From Myxococcales bacterium (GTDB taxonomy: Bacteria; Myxococcota_A; UBA9042): 48,014 nt of DNA. Location: positions 1 to 48,014 of the forward strand of contig JBBISH010000037.1 of NCBI GenBank assembly GCA_037441385.1, given 5' to 3'. The translations under genes were made by a program, and so were the position numbers. The notes below the pieces were generated by a model. It was not told where the DNA came from, made no database searches, and saw nothing but the letters and a program-made list of their open reading frames with translations. Shown piece after piece: positions 28,131 to 38,946 of this stretch (within the stretch, counting starts at the first letter, position 1; each line of letters begins with the position of its first letter).

Positions 28131-28742
28131 CTACGGTCCCTGGCAGTAGCCGGCGGCGTTGCACGAGCTGGGCGGCGTGCCCATGCCCGGCTTGGGGCAG
28201 TCCATTTGCGTGCTGCACGCGGGCCGGCACACCTTGCTGCCATCGCCCAGGGTCGCGCAGGTGCAGCCTTTGCTGGCCACGGCGGTGCACGCCAGGTCGG
28301 CTTTGCAGTCGGCCGTGGACTCGCATTTACCTGTAGTTGCAGCGACTTCCGCGGTGGATCGGCAAGTGCCGTTGGTCTGGCAAGTGCGCTTGTTGCCGCA
28401 GGCGAAGCCCGCGTTGCAGTCGGGTAGGCACGCCCCCACCGCCGTGTCGCACACGTAGCCGCTGCGGCAGTCGCTGCTGGCGGTGCACGTCGCCAGGCAG
28501 TAGCTCGCGCTGTCCAGGGCGACGCACGTGCCGCCGTCGCAGGTGCTGCCGCTGCAGGTCGCGCTGCAGGTGCCGCCCGTCCAGCCCGTTGCGCTGCCGT
28601 ACATGGTCGCGAGCAGGCACAGGTTGCTGGCGCAGTCGCTGCGGTCGCTGCATGCCGAGCCGACGGCGCCGCTGCCGGTGCTGGCGCACGCTGCCGCCGC
28701 GAACGCCAGGACGGTCAGTGCGAACGTGGTCGGCGCCCTCAC
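28131..28742 (-). CDS. Cys-rich lipoprotein
   Basis: GTGA overlap with the TPR gene; AAAAC lipobox; CxxxxDC repeats. Confidence 0.8.
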   Translation of the reverse strand: MRAPTTFALTVLAFAAAACASTGSGAVGSACSDRSDCASNLCLLATMYGSATGWTGGTCSATCSGSTCDGGTCVALDSASYCLATCTASSDCRSGYVCDTAVGACLPDCNAGFACGNKRTCQTNGTCRSTAEVAATTGKCESTADCKADLACTAVASKGCTCATLGDGSKVCRPACSTQMDCPKPGMGTPPSSCNAAGYCQGP

Positions 28743-29395
28743 TTCAGGGCCTCCAAGCCCGCCTTGGCGCTGGCATTTTGCCGACTGACGCTCAGGACTT
28801 CGGCAAAAGTCGCGCGGGCGTCGTCGCGGCGGCCCAGGCGCAGCAGCGTCCAGCCCAGGCCCAACTGCATCTCCAGATCGCCCGGGTAGTCTTCGAGCAC
28901 CTGCCGATACAGCGCTTCGGCCTCTTTGAACTTGCCTTGCGAGAAGGCGATGTAGGCCAGGCGACTACTTGCCAAGTAGTTGCGCGGCGCCACGGTCAGG
29001 ACCGCCCGCCCCACCCGCTCGGCCGACGCCCACTTCTTGGCGGCCATGAGCGGCAGCATCATGCCCAGCTGCGGCTCCAGCGCCCGCGGCGCCAGCTCGG
29101 CGGCCTTGGTATAGGCGGCGATGGACTCGTCGTAGCGCTGTTTTTGGTAGCTGAGCCACCCCAGGCGCAAGTTCGCCACGTAGTGCTGCGGCGCCAACTG
29201 CAGGATCTGCTGCACATCGGCCAGGGCCTTGGGATAGTTGTTGGTTGCCTCGTGCGAGAACGAACTCTCGAACAACTCGGCAATTCGCGCCCGTTGCGCG
29301 GCGGCGCCGGCATCCTCGGCGTGGCTGCGCGGCGACAGCCCCGCCACGGCCGCCAGCGCCAGCACCACTACGATGACCATCGTCCCTCGCTTCAT
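28739..29395 (-). CDS. Periplasmic tetratricopeptide repeat protein
   Basis: GGAGG RBS, signal peptide, TPR units (ANLRLGWLSY...AYTKAAELAP). Confidence 0.88.
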   Translation of the reverse strand: MKRGTMVIVVVLALAAVAGLSPRSHAEDAGAAAQRARIAELFESSFSHEATNNYPKALADVQQILQLAPQHYVANLRLGWLSYQKQRYDESIAAYTKAAELAPRALEPQLGMMLPLMAAKKWASAERVGRAVLTVAPRNYLASSRLAYIAFSQGKFKEAEALYRQVLEDYPGDLEMQLGLGWTLLRLGRRDDARATFAEVLSVSRQNASAKAGLEALK

Positions 29396-29461
29396 TAGAA
29401 CCTCCTTGTCTCTCAACGAGTTGCGGCCTCGGGCTTTGCTCCGGGCCGGCTGGGTGTCTCT

Positions 29462-30472
29462 TCAGAATTGCCAGCGCAAGCCCACCGTGCCGCCCAACAG
29501 TTCAAAACTGTGTGCCTTTCCGTCTTGGCGCATCCCAAAGTCCTGGCTCCACACCGCGTCCAGGGCCAGCCCGCCGCCCAGGCCGTAGCTCGCGCCCAGG
29601 CGATAGCCGCCGCGGTACACTTCGCTGCCGGTCCAGACCGACAACCCTGCGGACTCCAAAGCGTACTGACCGCGGCCATACCAGCCCAAGGCGGTCAGCT
29701 CCAAGTCGGCCAGTGGCCGCCAAGTGGCCCCCAAGCGCGCCGAAGGCCGCAGCACCGACCCCACTTCGCTCAAGCGCAGCCCCAAAGCGACGTCCAGGTT
29801 GGGGGTCAGGCGGCCAAACAGGCGCGGCTCCACCTGCACGACGGTCGTGTTCGGCAGCCACAGCGCGCTTGCCGACAAGTCGGCACCCCAGCTCTGGCCG
29901 CGGTACTGACCGGACAGGCTCGCGAGTGGACTGCCGTTTATGTCCGACGAGGTCGCCGTCACCAGCCCGGCGCTCCCGGTTAGCCGCAGCGCACCCCACT
30001 CGGCCCAGCCGCCCGCCACGGTCACCGACTGCCAAAAATTGTCACTTTGGTAGTTCAGCACGGTCCGCGAGGTCGTCTGCCCAAGCCACCAGCCGCCGCG
30101 GGCCCGATCGGCGCCAGCGAGGAGCGAAACGCCCGATACCGAATCGGAATTCCAAGCGCTGGTATAGCCCAAGTAGCTGCCCCAAACGGCCGCGCGCGGT
30201 CGCCACGGATCGCTCGCCGCAGCCGGTGGCAGAGTCGGGGCAGCGCAGACTTTGGCCTCGCAGTCTTGCAGTCGCAGCTGCAGCATGTGCAGGGCCGCCG
30301 CCTCGGCACTGGGGACATCGCTGGTAGGCGTTTCGGCACGGGCCGCGTCGACGGGCGCGGTCTCTTCGGCGGCCGGCGGCACCGGCAAGGGGGCTTCGTC
30401 CGCGACCACCGGCGGGGTCCCGCCGAGCAGGACCACCACAGTACTCAAGCTGGCAAGAACAAGTCTTTTCAT
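29462..30472 (-). CDS. Putative outer-membrane beta-barrel
   Basis: ATGA overlap with the upstream gene; signal peptide; alternating strands; ends VGLRWQF. Confidence 0.78.
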   Translation of the reverse strand: MKRLVLASLSTVVVLLGGTPPVVADEAPLPVPPAAEETAPVDAARAETPTSDVPSAEAAALHMLQLRLQDCEAKVCAAPTLPPAAASDPWRPRAAVWGSYLGYTSAWNSDSVSGVSLLAGADRARGGWWLGQTTSRTVLNYQSDNFWQSVTVAGGWAEWGALRLTGSAGLVTATSSDINGSPLASLSGQYRGQSWGADLSASALWLPNTTVVQVEPRLFGRLTPNLDVALGLRLSEVGSVLRPSARLGATWRPLADLELTALGWYGRGQYALESAGLSVWTGSEVYRGGYRLGASYGLGGGLALDAVWSQDFGMRQDGKAHSFELLGGTVGLRWQF

Positions 30473-32640
30473 GGTGCAACCTCGGCATCGACCACGGCCT
30501 CGCCGCCGCGCCAGCCGCGCAGACCCACCAGGCCGCGTTGCCGGTCGATGTGCAGCTCCAGGCGTTCGGGCAGCCCTGGCGCAGCGGCGATTTCGGTAGT
30601 GACCACCCAGCCTTGCGGTGTGACCCGCGTCCGGCTGCGGGTCTGCAGCCCGCCGCCATCGCCCAGCGGCAGCAGCAACTCGGCACCCAGCCGGCGCAGC
30701 GGCGACAAGAAGGGCAGCGCGCTGGGGCTGTCGTGCCATTGCACGGTTGCATCGGCCGCAAAGGGCACCCGCGCCGCCGCCACGGCAAACAGCGCGAGCA
30801 GGCTCCGCGGCGATCCGCGGAAATCCAGCACCGTCGCATACGAATCGTCCACGTAGATGCCCGCCGAGGCGTCGTCGCTGACCAACCGTCGCTGGCCCAG
30901 CGCGTCGATCGTGCTCGTCCAGGTCTGCGGGGTGGCATGGCCCTTGAACTGCCAGTTCCACGTGTTGCCCGGCGCGAGCGCCAGGGCCGTGCGCAGCTCG
31001 GCGTCGGGTTGCAGGGCCTCGATCAGGTCGCCCTCGGCCGGGCTGGCGTGGGTCAGATAGCGGCGCTCACCCTGGCTGGTGCGAATGAACTGCAGAAATT
31101 CGGCGGGGATCGTCGGCGCGCCCACCTCGGGGCTCGCCTGGACTTGCAGGTGCAAGTGCGGCACCGGCGAGCGGCCCGAATTGCCGACCCGCGCCAGCAG
31201 CTGACCGCGGACCACTGTGGCCCCTTCGCGGACTTGCAGGCTGCCTTGCTGCAGGTGGCACAGGGCCGAGTACACCCCGCCGCGATGGGCAATCACCAGC
31301 GCATTTCCCCAGTTGCGGGCCGTGTCGACATGGCCGATCGGGTTGTCCGGCAGGTGGCCGATGGCCCGCACCACCGTGCCGTCGGCCGGCGCCACTACCG
31401 GCGCGCCAAAGGCGTAGAAGTGATGCGGCTCGGTGCCCGCGTCGCGCCAGCGCTGCCCGTCGTCGTCCTGCACCTCGAAGTCCCACGCGTGGGCATACAG
31501 GCCCTGGTGCGTCAGCGCCCCGCCCGGCCCCTGGCTCACCAGCCAGCGGCCCATCACCGGCAGGTGCAGCAGCGGCACCCCCGGAGGCGGGTAGCGGCGC
31601 GCCTGCTGCAGCACCTGGTCCAGCGCTTCTTCGGGGCGCCCGGCCGATCCGCGCACCAGCTGCAGCGGGCCGGCGCCCAGACGTTGCACCAGCGCCAGCA
31701 GCGTCCCCGCCACCACCAGCACGAACGGCGCGGCCAGCACAGGCAATTCCAGGACTTGTAGCCCCTGCAGCAGCGCCGCGCCCAGCAGGGTCGCCGTCGC
31801 GGCCGTCAACGCCGCCAGCACCAGCGAAGCTTTGGAGAGCACAACGAAAACACCGCCCAGCGCCACCGCCGTCAAGATGGCGTTGAAGCCGAGGAGGTGC
31901 AGCTCCAGGTCGCCATCGGGCCCGCCCAACGCTGCGTAGGTCAGCCGCGCCGCCGCGTAACCCAGCAGCGCCAAAAGGGCGGCCCAGCGCGACCACGCCA
32001 GCAGCGCCAACAGCACCAGCGCCCCCGCCGCCGTCGTCGGCACCATCAGCACCGCGCCCAACGAGCGCAGCAGCGGCACCGCCGCGGTCGGGAGCCAATC
32101 GTGCGGACTGGCCGCCAGAGGCACGCCCGGAGCCACGTGGGCAAAGCGGTGCGCGGCCAGCAGCGCCAGCCAGCCGGCCAGCACAAAGGGCAACGACAGC
32201 AACGGCGCCCCTACGTACCGCTCGAACCAGGGCTTGAGAGCCAGGCCCAGGCCCAGCGCGACCGCCGCCGCCAGCACCACCAGGCCCGCCAGCGCCACGC
32301 TCGGCTTCAGCAGCAGCGCCAAGATCAAGCCCACCAGCAGACCGTTGCAACCCAGCCACTGCACGTCGAATTCCGGCAGCGCCGGCGCAAAGGTCCGCGC
32401 CAGCCCGCGGGTTACGGCCAAGCCCAGCAGGCCCAGGCCGCCCCGCAGCGGGTCCAAGAAGGTCGCCGCCACCAGCAGCAGCGCTGGCAGCCCGCGCATC
32501 CCGAACAAGACCAGCCCGTAGCTGGCCAGCCACTGCTCCGCAACCCGGCGCAGCGGCTGCACTTGCCGCAGCCACGGCTTGGCCGCCGCGGGCATCGGCT
32601 CAACCGCGCTCGCCGCGGGGATGCTGCTGGCAGACTCCAT
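30469..32640 (-). CDS. Urea-transporter-family membrane domain fused to an M23 peptidase domain
   Basis: Duplicated UT-like halves (GCNGLLVG/LSLPFV; GFNAILTA/LAAPFV); M23 motifs HAWD, PVVAPADG, WGN, HL, GNSGRSPVPHLH. Confidence 0.85.
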   Translation of the reverse strand: MESASSIPAASAVEPMPAAAKPWLRQVQPLRRVAEQWLASYGLVLFGMRGLPALLLVAATFLDPLRGGLGLLGLAVTRGLARTFAPALPEFDVQWLGCNGLLVGLILALLLKPSVALAGLVVLAAAVALGLGLALKPWFERYVGAPLLSLPFVLAGWLALLAAHRFAHVAPGVPLAASPHDWLPTAAVPLLRSLGAVLMVPTTAAGALVLLALLAWSRWAALLALLGYAAARLTYAALGGPDGDLELHLLGFNAILTAVALGGVFVVLSKASLVLAALTAATATLLGAALLQGLQVLELPVLAAPFVLVVAGTLLALVQRLGAGPLQLVRGSAGRPEEALDQVLQQARRYPPPGVPLLHLPVMGRWLVSQGPGGALTHQGLYAHAWDFEVQDDDGQRWRDAGTEPHHFYAFGAPVVAPADGTVVRAIGHLPDNPIGHVDTARNWGNALVIAHRGGVYSALCHLQQGSLQVREGATVVRGQLLARVGNSGRSPVPHLHLQVQASPEVGAPTIPAEFLQFIRTSQGERRYLTHASPAEGDLIEALQPDAELRTALALAPGNTWNWQFKGHATPQTWTSTIDALGQRRLVSDDASAGIYVDDSYATVLDFRGSPRSLLALFAVAAARVPFAADATVQWHDSPSALPFLSPLRRLGAELLLPLGDGGGLQTRSRTRVTPQGWVVTTEIAAAPGLPERLELHIDRQRGLVGLRGWRGGEAVVDAEVAP

Positions 32641-32643
32641 CGG

Positions 32644-33993
32644 TTACTCCGCCAGCCGGGCCGGCACCTGCTCCGGGCCCTTCAGGTCGTCCAACACCTC
32701 GGCGCGGCGGATCACGTCGACCTCGCCGTCCTCGCCCAGCAGCACGGCCGCCGGGCGCAGGCGGATGAACTGCATGGACTGCGTCACGTTGTACGCCCCC
32801 ACCGGCCGAATCACCAGCACGTCGCCCGCATCCAGAGGCGGCAGCAGCACGCTGGGGCGCACCACGTCGATGTTCATGCAGAGCGGCCCGTAGACCACCG
32901 TGTCCTCTTGCATGCCGCCGCGGTCCTCGGCCGGCAGCACGTCGTGGCGGTACCAGTAGCTGGTAAAGAGCACGTTGACGCCCGCGTCGACGATGATGGC
33001 GCGGGTGCCGTCGGCCAGGCGCTTTTGCCCCACCACGCTGGTGAGCATGAAGCCAGCCTCGTCGATCAGGGCGCGGCCGGTCTCCAGCAGCAGGGTCGGC
33101 AGCTCGTCCGGGCGGAAACCGGCGCCCAGCAGGGCCCGCGCCACCGCCTCGGCGTAGTCGTCGACCGGCGGGGTGGCGTCGGTGCCCGGCGCGTACTGCG
33201 CGTGCAGCGTGGCCCGCGAGGCAAAACCGCCGCCGATATCCAAGGTTTTCACCACCATCCCGGTCTCGCGGCGCACCTCCAGGGCCAGCTCGGCCAGGCG
33301 CCCGGCCATGCGCCCGTAGGCCGTGGGGTCGGTGACGTAAGTGCCGATGTGGCAGTGCAGGCCGTCGAGCTGCAGGTGGCCGCCGCTGGCGATGCGCCGC
33401 ACCGCGTCCATGGCCTCGCCGCTGTCCAGGTTGAAGCCAAAGCGGTCCCAGCGCGGGTGGATGCCCACGTCCATGTTGACCCGCAGCGTCACGCCCAGGC
33501 GCCGCCCGGCCTTTTTGGCAATCCGCTCGCAGGCATACAGCTCCTCGAAGTGGTCGACGTGGACGTGCGCGCCCTGCAGCAGCGCCTCTTCCAGCGCCGG
33601 CAGCGGCTTGTAGGGCCCGTTGAACAGGATGTGCGCGTCCGGGATGCCCAGGCGGCGGGCCATCTGGTACTCGTACTCGCTGACCACCTCGGCCCAGGCG
33701 CCCTCTTGGTGGAAGATGCGGCAGACCGCGTCCAGGTAGTTGGTCTTGTAACTCCAGGCGAATTGCACCTTGGGGTAGCGCTGCGAGAACGCCCGCCAGG
33801 CCTCGCGGTAGGCGCGGCGGATGCGGTGCTCGCTGTAGACGAACAGCGGGCTGCCGAATTGCTTGGCCAGATCCGTGACTTTGTGGCCATCGATGCGCTC
33901 CAGCGCCCGCCCGCCCGGCGCCCGGCCGAACTTGTTGGCCAGCGCGGCCTGGTGGCGAAGAATCGTTGGCTTCTCGTAGGGTTGACGGTCCAT
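32644..33993 (-). CDS. PLP-dependent decarboxylase, Orn/DAP/Arg (LysA-like) family
   Basis: SYKTNY (PLP Lys), HCHIG, DIGGGF, ETGR, GPLCMNID, GAY; AGGAGG RBS. Confidence 0.9.
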   Translation of the reverse strand: MDRQPYEKPTILRHQAALANKFGRAPGGRALERIDGHKVTDLAKQFGSPLFVYSEHRIRRAYREAWRAFSQRYPKVQFAWSYKTNYLDAVCRIFHQEGAWAEVVSEYEYQMARRLGIPDAHILFNGPYKPLPALEEALLQGAHVHVDHFEELYACERIAKKAGRRLGVTLRVNMDVGIHPRWDRFGFNLDSGEAMDAVRRIASGGHLQLDGLHCHIGTYVTDPTAYGRMAGRLAELALEVRRETGMVVKTLDIGGGFASRATLHAQYAPGTDATPPVDDYAEAVARALLGAGFRPDELPTLLLETGRALIDEAGFMLTSVVGQKRLADGTRAIIVDAGVNVLFTSYWYRHDVLPAEDRGGMQEDTVVYGPLCMNIDVVRPSVLLPPLDAGDVLVIRPVGAYNVTQSMQFIRLRPAAVLLGEDGEVDVIRRAEVLDDLKGPEQVPARLAE

Positions 33994-34017: not shown

Positions 34018-35061
34018 TTAGCGATGCAGTTCGCCCACCGTGGTCAGGGCCTGGTAATCGGCCAGCGCGCACACCTGGTCCAGGCTGTGGCGCAGGAACA
34101 GCACGCCGGGCGCAGGCGGCGGCATGGGCTCGACCTTGCGGCCCAGCGCCAGCTCCACCGTGGCCCACGGCAGGTTGCGCTCGGCACCCGCGCACAGGTA
34201 CACCCACGCCGGGAAACGCGGATTGATTTCAATCAGATGACACGAGCCCCCCTCGTGCGCACGCATCACCTCGAGCTCGCACGGCCCGCGCCACTTCAAC
34301 GCGGCGATGGTGGTGCGGACAAACGCGTCCAGCTCCGGGTCGGCCACGGTAATCCCGCCCCACGCCTTGCCTTTGTCGGTCAGCTGCATCTTGCGCATCG
34401 GCACGGCGCCGATGACACCGCCCTCGCCGTCGCCCAGGACGGTGATGTCGAACTCCACGCCGGCCACGTACTCCTGCACCACCACCGGCACACCCCACTT
34501 GGCGCGCAACCGCTGGAAATGGCTGTAGACCTCCATGGGCGTGTGGGCGATGGCTGCCTCGTAGAACTGGCCCTTGACCATCACCGGGAACTGGATCTGC
34601 TGGTCCAGCTTGGCGATCGCCGACTCCTCCATCAGGTTCACCCCGCGCGGCACCCGCACGCCGCGGTCGTTCAGGGCCGCCAGTTGGTCCTTGGCGCGCA
34701 GCTTCAGGCTGTCTTGGCTGGGCAGCAGGGTAGCGATGCCCATGGCGCGCAGCTGCGGCTCCAGCTTCAGCAGCCCGGCCAGCTCGGAATCCAGCGTGGG
34801 AATCAGCACATCGATGGGTGTGTGGGCGTGGATGGCGCTCAGCCGCTCCAGCGTGACCGCGGTGCCCTGCGACGGGTACGGCATCAGGTACACGTGGTCG
34901 GCGATGCCATCCATGTAGGCGCCCGGGTCCAGGGCGTCGTAGCCCAGGCCGATGATGCACACGTCCGGATTCGCCTTGCGGATCGAGCGGATCACCGGCA
35001 CGCCCGGCCCCGGGTTGTCGGTGGCGTTCAGGCCGCTGACGGCTACCGTGAGCTTGGCCAT
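34018..35061 (-). CDS. ATP-grasp ligase
   Basis: LIPTLDSE, FPVMVKG, VVQEYVAG.E, LIEINPRF. Confidence 0.88.
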   Translation of the reverse strand: MAKLTVAVSGLNATDNPGPGVPVIRSIRKANPDVCIIGLGYDALDPGAYMDGIADHVYLMPYPSQGTAVTLERLSAIHAHTPIDVLIPTLDSELAGLLKLEPQLRAMGIATLLPSQDSLKLRAKDQLAALNDRGVRVPRGVNLMEESAIAKLDQQIQFPVMVKGQFYEAAIAHTPMEVYSHFQRLRAKWGVPVVVQEYVAGVEFDITVLGDGEGGVIGAVPMRKMQLTDKGKAWGGITVADPELDAFVRTTIAALKWRGPCELEVMRAHEGGSCHLIEINPRFPAWVYLCAGAERNLPWATVELALGRKVEPMPPPAPGVLFLRHSLDQVCALADYQALTTVGELHR

Positions 35062-35336
35062 CACATCCCCCCGCTGGCGGCCTGGCCGTTCTCTTGCGGC
35101 GCGTCTGCCCGCAAGTGCAGGTCGCGCAAACGGAACAGGAATTGCTCGGCGTCGCGCTGGGCGGTGGCCTCTTCCACCTCGAAGTGCTCAGCCATGCCCA
35201 TGGCCAGCTCGGCCTCGGCGGTGCCGGCCATCAGGGCCTTGAGCATCCAAGTCGCGGTTTTGTTCAGGGTATAGGTGTTGCCCGTCCGGGTGTCGAACAG
35301 GAAGCCGCTGTCGCTCAGGGCCAGGTGCTGGTACAC
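35061..35336 (-). CDS. PqqD-family / RiPP recognition element protein
   Basis: GFLFDTRTGNTYTLNKTA...HFEVEEATAQRDAEQFL; GGAGG RBS before GTG. Confidence 0.88.
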   Translation of the reverse strand: MYQHLALSDSGFLFDTRTGNTYTLNKTATWMLKALMAGTAEAELAMGMAEHFEVEEATAQRDAEQFLFRLRDLHLRADAPQENGQAASGGM

Positions 35337-35397: not shown

Positions 35398-35414
35398 AGC
35401 AAGGGGTGTGCCAA
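35398..35414 (-). promoter_or_regulatory. Sigma54 (-24/-12) promoter
   Basis: TTGGCAC-ACCCC-TTGCT, exact GG-N10-GC spacing, about 60 bp upstream of the PqqD gene. Confidence 0.85.
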
Positions 35415-35529: not shown

Positions 35530-35597
35530 GAAGTGCAAATTTTGCACTTCGGTCGCGCAAGAACTGCATCTTGGCGGCTGGGGTGCAGATTTTGCAC
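35530..35597. promoter_or_regulatory. Putative enhancer (bEBP-binding) palindromes
   Basis: GAAGTGCAAA-T-TTTGCACTTC (35530-35550), CGCA-N5-TGCA (35556-35568), GTGCAGATTTTGCAC (35583-35597). Confidence 0.7.
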
Positions 35598-35660: not shown

Positions 35661-37052
35661 TCACGCGGTCTCCCCACGCCGCCAGCCCGCCACCGCCAGC
35701 CCACTGAGGCCAAACCGCACCGCGTTCCCTTCGTGCAGCGCGGCCAGCTCGCCAAGCGCCACCTGCACGAACCGCGGACGATCGGCCGCGGCCACCGAGT
35801 CCGGCGTGTACTCCACGACTTGCGCCTCGCTGGCCGGCTGTCCGCTGGCCACCACCGCGCGCACCACCTCGCCCAGTTGCCGGCGGTACTTCAGGCGCAC
35901 CGGCTCGGGCGGCACCAACTGCTGCTCCACGGCGGCGTAGTGCTGGCAACTGCGCTCGTACGCCCACACGAACACATCTCGCATCAGGTCGACCTTGCCC
36001 AGCTCGTAAATGCCCAAGATCGCATCGGTATACGCGGCTTCGGGCAGATCCAGGAACGCCAGCGGCACCAAATTGTGACGAATCAGCGGCACATTGGCGG
36101 CCAGGCGCGACACCCGCTTGTTGACGTCTTCAAACGGCTGCAGGTACGGCAGGTGAACCAGGACGAACAGCGCCTGCTCAAACGGGTCGGCGATGGCGTT
36201 CGCGGTCGCACACAGCAAGGCAAACACCTGCTCCAGGCGCTGCGGCAACGCCAGGGGCAAGTAGACGCTGCCGCCGATGCCCACCGCCCGTCGCCGCAGA
36301 CGCCCACAGGCGGCCGGATCGGCCAACAGGCCGTCGGACAGAAGTGCATGAAGATCCAACAGGGTAGCCGGGCCCAGGTCCAGCCCGGCGGCTCGGTCCA
36401 CCAGGTACTCGATGGCCGCCTTGTGGTTCAAGATCATCTGCGCTTCCACGGCGTCGTGGCCGGCGGCAGTCTCGCCAAAGGCAATCAGGCGCTCGGTGTC
36501 CAGGCGCGTGTAGGTGTTGCCCTCCAGCCGGCTCGACGCCCACGCCAAGTCGATTAGCAATCGGCTCAGGATCTCTTTGGCAAACGTGCCGGCGACATCG
36601 GCCGCGTGACCGGCGCGCCCCAGCGAGGCCAGCGATTGCCGAAGCGACTCAGGCAGATACCAAGTGTGTCCCGGCCGATACGCCTCGAGTAGCTCCAGGC
36701 GATAGCTGACCGGCTCGCGCAACGCCTGCGGACGGCGGACAGCGGCGACGATGGCCACGGACTCGGGCGAGAGCGGAACGATTCCCGCATACTCGGGGAC
36801 TTGCTCGGCACTGCGGCTGGCAGGAACGGGGGCCGGCGGCAACTGGCCAAGCCCATAGCGGACCGCGCGCCCCGAACCGCCCGCCAGCACCTGCCCGGAC
36901 TGTGCCATGGCCGCCAAGTGCCGCTGCAAAGTCCGCTTCGGCACAGGGGAAGGCAGGTGGGACAGCAGCTCGGACACGCCAAGCCCGGCTGGGTGATTCG
37001 CAAGCGCGGTCAAAATGCTCGCGTCGATCGACTCGGAGTGGAAGGTGGCCAT
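35661..37052 (-). CDS. Fic-family protein with N-terminal winged HTH
   Basis: SSRLEGN, MILNHK, variant Fic motif YLQPFEDVNKRVSR; N-terminal PKRTLQRHL...RAVRY. Confidence 0.9.
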   Translation of the reverse strand: MATFHSESIDASILTALANHPAGLGVSELLSHLPSPVPKRTLQRHLAAMAQSGQVLAGGSGRAVRYGLGQLPPAPVPASRSAEQVPEYAGIVPLSPESVAIVAAVRRPQALREPVSYRLELLEAYRPGHTWYLPESLRQSLASLGRAGHAADVAGTFAKEILSRLLIDLAWASSRLEGNTYTRLDTERLIAFGETAAGHDAVEAQMILNHKAAIEYLVDRAAGLDLGPATLLDLHALLSDGLLADPAACGRLRRRAVGIGGSVYLPLALPQRLEQVFALLCATANAIADPFEQALFVLVHLPYLQPFEDVNKRVSRLAANVPLIRHNLVPLAFLDLPEAAYTDAILGIYELGKVDLMRDVFVWAYERSCQHYAAVEQQLVPPEPVRLKYRRQLGEVVRAVVASGQPASEAQVVEYTPDSVAAADRPRFVQVALGELAALHEGNAVRFGLSGLAVAGWRRGETA

Positions 37053-37668: not shown

Positions 37669-38928
37669 CTACGCCGCCTCGTCGAGTTCGTTTGCCTCCT
37701 CGACCGTGCTCAGCACGCCTTGCGCCCACACCACACCTTTGCTCTGCAACGCCTTGATATACCGGGTCTCGTCGTACGCCTCGCCAGTGCGCAGCAAGGC
37801 CGCCAGTAGGCGCAGCAGCGACCGCGCGATGATCCTCAGTGCTGTTCCATGGTTCTTGCCGTGTTGCCTCAGGTATGCGTACTGCGCTTTGGCCCATTTC
37901 AGGCGCATCATCGCCTGCATCGCCAGCAGATAGCTCGTGCGGCGGCCGCGCACTGGTGCCGACTTGCGCATCCGGACCACGTTGAGGCTCTTGCCGCTCT
38001 GGCGCTTGACGGGACTGGCGCCGCACCACACGGCCAGGTCGTCGCGGTCGCCTTGCGCCAAGTTCACCGCGCCCAGTGCCAGCAGGCTGATCGCCAGGGT
38101 AACGCCAATCCCGGGCGTGCTGCGCAACGTCGTGCTTTCGGTATACCGCTCGGCCAGCTTGTCCATGGCGCTGTCGATATCAGCTTGCTGCTTGCGCAAT
38201 TGCCGTAACTCGCCCACCAGCCGGCGTACACGAGCGGCGTGTGCCGCGCGAACTTCGCTCGCCATCGCCACCCACGGCTCGGCCAACGCCGACACAATCG
38301 CCGCCCGACGCTTGCTGTGGAACCGGCAGCGCCCGAGCAGCTCCTCGCGGTCGTGCTCGCTGAGCGCGGCTCCGTCCTGCCAGGTCGGCACCGCCTCCAC
38401 CACCGCCAGAGCCGCCTGCGTCCACATCTGCGATAGCGACCGCTCCAGCGCTGGATGCACCTTGACCAACTCCTCGCGCAACTGATTGGTCGCACGCTGA
38501 ATCTTGCTCAGCACGTCGTCGTGATCGTCCAGAAGAACGCCCGCTGTCTCGCGCAGCGCCTCGGGCGGCTCCCAGGCCTCGATGCGGTGGTGGCTGCTGT
38601 CCAGCATCCGCAATAGCGTCTCGGCGTCGCGCTCGTCGTCCTTGGCGCCACTCGATGTCAGCGATTCGGCAAACCTTCGGGCTTGCTTGGCGTCCTGCAC
38701 GTAGACCACGGCCTCACGCGCATGCAGGGCGGCCGCCAGGCCCGCATCGCCGGCCTCGATGCTCACCTCTACCCCGACGTCATTGCCACCGAGCTGCTGA
38801 GCTGCAGCCATCAACTCGTCGACACCCTCAAGGCTACGTACAACCTTGAGCTTCCTGTGCTTTTCGCCACACCGTAACCGCGCGACCGACTCCCGCCGCG
38901 CCCAATCAATACCCATCTGGACAAGCAT
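37669..38928 (-). CDS. IS110-family DEDD recombinase/transposase
   Basis: GIDWA, SIEAG, KDDERDA (DEDD), STPGIG, SPVKRQSGK (catalytic Ser); GGAGG RBS. Confidence 0.93.
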   Translation of the reverse strand: MLVQMGIDWARRESVARLRCGEKHRKLKVVRSLEGVDELMAAAQQLGGNDVGVEVSIEAGDAGLAAALHAREAVVYVQDAKQARRFAESLTSSGAKDDERDAETLLRMLDSSHHRIEAWEPPEALRETAGVLLDDHDDVLSKIQRATNQLREELVKVHPALERSLSQMWTQAALAVVEAVPTWQDGAALSEHDREELLGRCRFHSKRRAAIVSALAEPWVAMASEVRAAHAARVRRLVGELRQLRKQQADIDSAMDKLAERYTESTTLRSTPGIGVTLAISLLALGAVNLAQGDRDDLAVWCGASPVKRQSGKSLNVVRMRKSAPVRGRRTSYLLAMQAMMRLKWAKAQYAYLRQHGKNHGTALRIIARSLLRLLAALLRTGEAYDETRYIKALQSKGVVWAQGVLSTVEEANELDEAA

Positions 38929-38946
38929 GACCACCTCCGGCAAAGT

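Follow-up and report, generated by a model that had tools for sequence, protein, structure and literature searches.

In the 48,014-nucleotide stretch of Myxococcales DNA analyzed here (NCBI GenBank assembly GCA_037441385.1, contig JBBISH010000037.1, positions 1 to 48,014; called the window below), a pyridoxal 5'-phosphate (PLP)-dependent decarboxylase begins with a tail resembling the leader of a peptide made by the ribosome and modified after translation (RiPP), and a stand-alone PqqD-family protein, or RiPP recognition element (RRE), is encoded in the same operon, together with an ATP-grasp ligase and a urea-transporter-like membrane protein fused to an M23 metallopeptidase. As judged from the sequences, the RRE of this operon most probably docks the N-terminal tail of the decarboxylase as a built-in leader: the tail is conserved in several phyla, the residues by which lasso-type RREs hold their leaders are kept, and tail residue 6 covaries with RRE residue 62. 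The features on which this reading depends are the following.

32644..33993, minus strand: PLP-dependent decarboxylase of fold type III (Orn/DAP/Arg decarboxylase family), 449 amino acids, identified by Pfam, NCBIfam and PDB matches
33895..33993, minus strand: N-terminal tail of the decarboxylase, residues 1–33, without counterpart in the relatives LysA, FslC and BtrK
33961..33978, minus strand: block 1 of the tail, Y6-E-K-P9-T-I11, a leader-like RRE motif [Y/F/W]xxPx[I/L/V], delimited by conservation and the published motif
33925..33945, minus strand: block 2 of the tail, A17-L-A-N-K21-F-G23 (K21 codon at 33931–33933), delimited by conservation
35061..35336, minus strand: stand-alone PqqD-family RRE, 91 amino acids, GTG start (PF05402, 49.4 bits against a cut-off of 23.4)
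within 35061..35336, minus strand: codons of the putative RRE contact residues N25 (35262–35264), D62 (35151–35153) and F66 (35139–35141)

The decarboxylase tail and its probable RRE partner

The 449-residue open reading frame (ORF; 33993..32644) starts with MDRQPYEKPTILRHQAALANKFGRAPGGRALERIDG, with a GGAGG Shine-Dalgarno sequence 5 nt ahead of the ATG, and the segment flagged in the first-pass annotation (33890–33993) corresponds to its residues 1–34, MDRQPYEKPTILRHQAALANKFGRAPGGRALERI. The protein matches PF02784 (112.6 bits) and PF00278 (50.2 bits) above their cut-offs, and falls below those of the LysA model TIGR01048 (229.8 bits against an equivalog cut-off of 297.9) and of the FslC model NF041039 (215.4 bits against 500). 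The closest solved structure is that of an N-citrylornithine decarboxylase (7kh2, 2.1e-59, residues 32–429). The stretch W80-S-Y-K83-T-N85 does not vary across 97 decarboxylase sequences, and K83 is presumably the Schiff-base lysine, judging by the family. Since the alignments with TIGR01048, the FslC profile and 7kh2 begin only at residues 34, 33 and 32, respectively, the tail of about 30 residues is an extension ahead of the fold, which bears out the extra segment that the first-pass annotation had placed before the LysA-like start. In the AlphaFold2 model based on the 97-sequence alignment (mean predicted local distance difference test score, pLDDT, 91.8; predicted template modeling score 0.88), residues 1–30 have no secondary structure and block-mean pLDDT values of 61, 48 and 56, which fits a partner-binding linear motif; the model is that of a monomer, in which packing on a second subunit would not be visible.

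A search for the decarboxylase family in a one-genome-per-species collection yielded at least 599 matching stretches. The 80 best loci, which were analyzed, belong to Myxococcota, Bacteroidota (including cultured Mucilaginibacter), Ignavibacteriota, Calditrichia, Aquificota, Verrucomicrobia and Desulfobacterota-type metagenome-assembled genomes (MAGs). The N-terminal motif, whose conservation among homologs the first-pass annotation had proposed to check, is indeed conserved: it was found in 79 of these 80 loci (in the exception, L022, the motif is there and the start codon was not found by the script), as well as in 117 of 120 database homologs, the remaining three records being N-terminally shorter. 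Tails were then paired with the PqqD proteins of the same operons in 221 loci, drawn from the 80 best loci, from 30 loci plus 80 fetched regions of a 401-genome sample of one Bacteroidota order, and from 44 loci of a 401-genome sample of the window's phylum. P9 and K21 are constant in all 221 (179/179 and 42/42), which span several phyla; position 6 holds Y (164 loci), F (53) or W (4), and position 11 is I, L, V or F. P9 and K21 are 12 residues apart in 227 of 228 tails; in 214 of the 228, the G(S/T)P of the fold comes 26 residues after K21. Among the 117 tailed database homologs, K21 is kept in 116 and replaced by Arg in one (record P0103). F22 and G23 vary within the window's own phylum (NKHG, NKLA and NKMS, for example), and the 10 residues separating block 2 from the fold, with an entropy of about 3 bits each, are among the most variable of the protein. 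Because P9 and K21 do not vary, the linker does and residues 1–30 are unstructured in the model, the tail is best described as a conserved linear motif rather than as a part of the fold; given this conservation over a very large family, the match to [YFW]xxPx[ILV] is more than chance.

The closest solved relatives of a profile built from 60 operon PqqD proteins are the lasso-peptide RREs TbiB1 (1.5e-13) and TfuB1 (1.6e-10), followed by PbaB1 and LppB. With the PqqD protein of the window, the NCBIfam model lasso_PqqD_Strm scored 48.8, under its cut-off of 70, and the HPr-rel-A PqqD chaperone model TIGR04353 scored 39.5 bits, over its cut-off of 35. The HPr-rel-A system has HprK-related kinase neighbors; no kinase was found among the operon genes scanned, the rest of the genome not having been searched for one. 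In gapless HMMER alignments, N25, D62, F66 and L70 of the window's RRE correspond to N33, D70, F74 and M78 of LppB, with offsets that match the published numbering at all residues compared (PMC13381572). In that paper, D70 of LppB hydrogen-bonds the leader Tyr, N33 fixes the kink at the Pro and F74 splits two pockets, Q79 takes the place of D70 in PbaB1, which reads Trp, and the leader motif is [Y/W]xxPx[L/V/I/F/A] (PMC13381572). Tail residues 6–11, YEKPTI, agree with this motif, and the family also admits Phe at position 6 (53/221); of the 179 loci of the first sample, 174 retain N25 and 170 retain F66. At the sequence level, the tail and the RRE thus resemble a lasso-type (B1) RRE-leader pair in every respect tested.

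The resemblance to the solved lasso pairs (TbiB1/TbiA, 5v1u-5v1v; TfuB1/FusA, 6jx3; LppB/LppA, 9x8z; PbaB1/PbaA, 9x90) extends to the discrete PqqD-family RRE of about 90 residues, to the [Y/W]xxPx[L/V/I] ligand motif with its spacing, and to the Asn at the Pro kink, the Asp for the Tyr hydroxyl and the Phe dividing the pockets. The ligand, however, is here the N-terminus of a 449-residue PLP enzyme instead of a free precursor of 30–50 residues, Phe can open the motif if another residue stands in for Asp62, and the partners are an ATP-grasp protein and a decarboxylase. The locus does not look like a lasso cluster: Pfam scans of 10 window proteins, which did not extend to the remainder of the window, revealed neither a free precursor nor a B2 protease nor an Asn-synthetase-like cyclase.

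RRE-62, whose equivalent hydrogen-bonds the leader Tyr in the solved complexes, is distributed as follows over the 221 pairs.

Tail Tyr6 (164 loci): RRE-62 is D in 143, N in 15, H in 4, E in 1, alignment gap in 1
Tail Phe6 (53 loci): RRE-62 is Y in 31, S in 13, A in 4, E in 2, T in 1, L in 1, N in 1; D in 0 of 53
Tail Trp6 (4 loci): RRE-62 is E in 2, D in 2

Tyr6 goes with Asp, Asn or His at RRE-62 in 162 of 164 loci, and Asp62, the would-be partner of the Tyr hydroxyl, vanishes exactly when the hydroxyl does. Among 554 columns (PqqD, ATP-grasp and residues 1–130 of the decarboxylase), the normalized mutual information between tail-6 and RRE-62 amounts to 0.965, the runner-up having 0.448; after average product correction, this pair comes first of 84,107 inter-unit column pairs, with 0.772 against a 99.99th percentile of 0.357. 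The covariation is specific and is no general clade effect. Tail-6 changes 8–9 times on the ATP-grasp trees, and the path-disjoint F/Y pairs on the best trees all go in the expected direction (7/7 with IQ-TREE in quick mode, p = 0.016; 8/8 with FastTree, p = 0.008). In two Bacteroidota genomes where the operon is split (G065, loci L117 and L193; G284, loci L149 and L194), the tailed decarboxylase lies on another contig, and both the tail and the Y6/D62 pairing are kept. The genes that follow PqqD and ATP-grasp there are unrelated ones: FolB and a type IX secretion system cargo protein in one genome, TPR and LRR proteins in the other.

Homology and covariation together make docking in the lasso-type mode the likely arrangement and support the proposal of the first-pass annotation that the RRE binds a leader borne by the enzyme; the consequences suggested there, scaffolding of a decarboxylase/ATP-grasp complex, modification of the NKFG Lys and RiPP logic with a fused precursor, are hypotheses. 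The leader would be made up of about the first 15 decarboxylase residues, of which the stand-alone RRE would bind roughly residues 4–15 in the canonical lasso-type mode. Tyr6 would fill the first pocket and bond through its hydroxyl to Asp62, Pro9 would be kinked against Asn25, Ile11 would lie behind Phe66 and Leu70, in the second pocket, and residues 10–15 would add a strand to the RRE sheet.

Several points weigh against this reading. When only the well-supported branches are used, treekit gives 2–3 independent F/Y pairs, all as expected and not significant (p 0.25–0.5), so that the 7/7 and 8/8 counts lean on unsupported branches of the best trees; the sample is heavy in one Bacteroidota order, which contributes 110 of the 221 pairs; and the pairing has exceptions, one Phe6 locus with Asn62 and one Tyr6 locus with Glu62, and is inconsistent for Trp6. 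Co-folding PqqD with tail residues 1–45 lends weak support: the score was 0.46, the best of three controls reaching 0.14, with at least 90% contact agreement between runs and a partner pLDDT of at least 51. Of 157 solved complexes, 116 pass the mark applied, as do 2 of 215 mismatched pairs; with scores of 0.60 or less, only 18 of the 157 pass it, along with both of these mismatches. Since solved RRE-leader complexes exist, the co-fold result may also reflect memorized structures. No PqqD::ATP-grasp or PqqD::decarboxylase fusion was found, a search for longer PqqD-containing proteins giving none at E <= 1e-8, which is weak evidence. Lastly, docking alone does not explain the invariance of K21 in block 2 nor its fixed spacing.

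Two candidate signals were put aside. The rule that Trp6 goes with Glu62, suggested by the first two loci, failed in the second sample, where two loci have W with D. A 759-residue protein (P0043), considered as an ATP-grasp::decarboxylase fusion with an internal YVKPTI tail, was treated as an artefact because its junction, ...LYLILRSRRLRVPHH..., reads as a frameshifted ATP-grasp C-terminus.

The tail might instead be intrinsic to the decarboxylase, whether as a lid of the active site, as an arm swapped within the dimer or as an autoinhibitory pseudo-substrate, the PqqD protein serving an unrelated peptide encoded elsewhere. The tail is conserved wherever the enzyme occurs, fold-type III decarboxylases build their active sites at the dimer interface, and the monomer model is blind to contacts of this kind. 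The covariation, however, is specific to the Tyr-binding residue of the RRE, the best value between the tail and the decarboxylase core (residues 36–130), 0.233, is the lowest among the unit pairs, the sequence of the linker is variable, and no conserved peptide ORF was found in the 80 loci. We consider this explanation quite improbable.

Operon organization and search for a separate precursor

The RRE gene and the genes listed below are encoded on the same strand as the decarboxylase.

34018..35064, minus strand: ATP-grasp ligase (PF15632 ATPgrasp_Ter, 34.5 bits; PRK12767-type models all under their cut-offs)
30469..32640, minus strand: urea-transporter-like membrane domain fused to an M23 metallopeptidase (PF03253, 147.4 bits, residues 38–316; PF01551, 56.8 bits, residues 411–502)
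30475..29462, minus strand: signal-peptide protein, 337 amino acids, no Pfam family matched
29416..28739, minus strand: TPR protein (Pfam TPR families)
35399..35413, minus strand: candidate sigma-54-type promoter, TGGCAC-N5-TTGC, about 60 nt upstream of the PqqD start (pattern match)

The PqqD, ATP-grasp, decarboxylase and urea transporter/M23 genes are tightly packed, and the order PqqD, ATP-grasp, decarboxylase, urea transporter/M23, TPR recurs in essentially all the adequately flanked loci. The ATP-grasp gene is immediately upstream of that of the decarboxylase in 80 of the 80 best loci, the urea transporter/M23 gene comes after the decarboxylase gene in most of those with adequate flanks, and a relative of the TPR protein is encoded downstream of the urea transporter/M23 gene in most of the 80. 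The first-pass annotation had proposed asking whether the tail motif occurs only beside a PqqD gene, and no PqqD-less members of the family turned up as a contrast: in the first set, PqqD lies upstream in all 178 loci where the N-terminus of the decarboxylase is present and the flank is long enough (6 further loci stop within 1.4 kb upstream), and in 42 of 43 loci of the second set, where L214 is cut by the contig end and the PqqD alignment of L213 is partial; with enough flank, the count for the second set is 41 of 41.

The ATP-grasp gene is present in 161 of the 401 genomes of the Bacteroidota order, and occurs together with that of the decarboxylase in 159. By comparison of the two lists, the discordant genomes are G144 and G253, which have the ATP-grasp only, and G388, which has the decarboxylase only, the matches in G253 and G388 being located at contig ends. 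In the window's phylum, the ATP-grasp was found in 47 of the 401 sampled genomes, in only 2 of the 7 other genomes of the genus and in 5 of the 28 other genomes of the family; the distribution of the operon among the relatives of the window is patchy.

When 3691 small ORFs of the 80 loci were compared all against all, no conserved small-ORF family emerged besides PqqD and antisense frames, although very short or fast-evolving peptides would escape such a comparison. In the window itself, no ORF exists between the promoter-like site and PqqD: the sigma-54-like site, the Shine-Dalgarno sequence and the GTG of PqqD leave no space for one. The earlier statement that no separate precursor ORF lies near the PqqD gene therefore holds, both at this locus and over the 80 loci.

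It can also be asked whether the tail is itself a RiPP precursor fused to an enzyme, from which the M23 peptidase would cut it off, the product being either the modified peptide or a small molecule made from N-K-F-G in the manner of pyrroloquinoline quinone or mycofactocin. Such a role would agree with the make-up of the tail, in which a conserved core-like block comes after a leader-like one, with the presence of a peptidase domain in the operon and with the wide distribution and strict conservation of the system, as in cofactor pathways. Each product molecule would nevertheless cost one 449-residue enzyme, no evidence for a cleavage site was found, F22 and G23 are not invariant, and urea-transporter pores are narrow. 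This possibility seems to us highly improbable.

Lys21 and comparison with known systems

Docking of the tail by the RRE, the reading preferred here, leads to a tentative picture of the whole assembly. Since discrete RREs normally pass the bound peptide to a partner enzyme, we infer that the RRE-tail complex probably tethers the decarboxylase to the ATP-grasp ligase. Lys21, 12 residues after Pro9 and 26 before the fold, would thereby be set at a fixed point of the ligase-decarboxylase assembly, and may be either a point of contact in the ligase or the residue to which a substrate is tethered; its invariance and spacing fit a presented residue without proving one. As the closest solved relatives, FslC and BtrK, act on conjugated or tethered amino acids, the assembly would probably carry out amide formation followed by decarboxylation of the conjugated amino acid, like FslA/FslC and BtrJ/BtrK, and the product would be released at the urea transporter/M23 membrane protein.

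The tail may have a larger part in this chemistry, as a carrier and not only as a docking element. The RRE would clamp block 1, the ATP-grasp ligase would join the side-chain carboxylate of an amino acid to the epsilon-amine of Lys21, the decarboxylase would act on the residue carried by its own arm, as BtrK does on BtrI, and the M23 domain would free the product beside the urea-transporter pore. The constancy of K21 in all 221 loci, at a fixed spacing from P9 and from the fold, speaks for such a role, pure docking needing neither. The same can be said of the solved relatives, which work on conjugated or tethered amino acids (FslC, 2.1e-59; BtrK, 2.7e-32), of the combination of an ATP-grasp with a peptidase domain in the operon, and of the published routes to small molecules that use scaffold peptides and RiPP machinery, as described in the fosfazinomycin preprint (PMC13622209). 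The inter-protein scores ranked second to fifth, moreover, involve tail-19, paired with ATP-grasp columns 122, 284 (beside the EINPRF motif) and 226; these were not counted as evidence because the signal comes mostly from one clade, having P19 with E122 in 121 loci. On the opposite side, F22 and G23 vary in the window's phylum, one homolog has Arg21, and a single arm per enzyme could work only with catalytic reloading. On balance, we regard a Lys21-borne intermediate as rather unlikely; if there is one, the operon would belong, with the same low probability, to a scaffold-peptide type of biosynthesis (of the RiPP, peptide aminoacyl-tRNA ligase (PEARL) or LysW-like kind) in which the scaffold is fused to one of the enzymes.

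Four known systems can be compared with these proposals, in addition to the lasso pairs. In rhizoferrin biosynthesis (FslA/FslC, or FigA/FigC), FslC is the nearest solved relative of the decarboxylase and shares the CMxxD active-site stretch, and the proposed order of events, with ligation first and decarboxylation of the conjugated amino acid second, would be analogous. The ligase is however an ATP-grasp protein here and an NRPS-independent siderophore (NIS) synthetase there, the alignment with FslC stops short of the tail, and FslC is not known to have an RRE partner. Butirosin biosynthesis (BtrI/BtrJ/BtrK) has the same pairing of an ATP-grasp protein with a LysA-like PLP decarboxylase; BtrK (7ru7, 2.7e-32) was named L-glutamyl-[BtrI acyl-carrier protein] decarboxylase by its depositors. 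Unlike in butirosin biosynthesis, no carrier-protein family was found among the operon proteins, so that the tether, if there is one, would be the Lys of the enzyme's own tail, held by the RRE.

In the PEARL system of fosfazinomycin, with its peptide FzmZ, a small molecule is assembled on a peptide of ribosomal origin, which does not itself become the product (PMC13622209). RiPP-type recognition machinery would be common to that system and to the present one if Lys21 carries an intermediate; the PEARL substrates are free peptides extended at their C-terminus, in contrast to the leader-like segment considered here, which is fused to an enzyme and has no free C-terminus. In the borosins (OphMA, for example), a precursor is likewise fused to the modifying enzyme, its core being C-terminal, self-methylated and then cleaved, and no RRE is involved. 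The borosins and the operon would be alike in that an enzyme polypeptide itself contains the peptide segment which the pathway recognizes.

The literature searched contained no paper on this operon and none joining PqqD with a urea transporter, although the supplements of the RRE survey PMC12710340 could list its RRE family. RRE-leader recognition is itself known; the new part would be that the leader is fused to an enzyme, in a pathway that has not been described. RREs serve as class-independent markers of RiPP clusters, the premise being that they bind a free precursor, and here a lasso-type RRE appears to read a leader belonging to an enzyme. The operon is not rare, with at least 599 species-level matching stretches for the decarboxylase family, and it is found in hundreds of species from many phyla. 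If the reading proposed here is correct, the lack of a precursor for an "orphan" RRE would not have to be put down to faulty annotation, RRE-leader pairs could act as general protein-protein docking modules, and a large uncharacterized pathway (PqqD, ATP-grasp, decarboxylase, urea transporter/M23 fusion and envelope proteins) would become directly testable, including in cultured hosts such as Mucilaginibacter rubeus (L031).

Flanking features and variant loci

The pattern TGGCAC-N5-TTGC upstream of PqqD has a single match in the window, where 0.24 would be expected by chance, and at least one match occurs in 23 of 100 shuffles; its assignment as a sigma-54-type promoter is at most suggestive. 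Two near-identical palindromes, GTGCAAAAT(C/T)TGCAC, at 35583–35597 and 35533–35547 on the minus strand, lie 120–185 nt beyond this site, and could be sites for an enhancer-binding protein. Directly upstream of the operon, a gene at 35661–37052 (minus strand) encodes a Fic/DOC-domain protein of 463 amino acids, with a very weak match to the XopAC/AvrAC model (18.2 bits against a cut-off of 450); beside it, an IS110-family transposase (PF01548 and PF02371) is encoded at 37669–38943 (minus strand).

Some of the Bacteroidota loci carry insertions of approximately 0.9–4.5 kb, which are located between PqqD and ATP-grasp (L030, L035), between ATP-grasp and decarboxylase (L060, L076) or between decarboxylase and urea transporter/M23 (L023, L028, L067, L068). 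In a Thermovibrio MAG (L045, 200–893 and 2595–3843), an extra PqqD gene and the first half of an ATP-grasp gene are present about 2 kb upstream of the complete operon. The genome from which the window comes holds a second PqqD-family match on another contig (G000:C5:35426-35578, locus L002), with a score of 31.9 bits.

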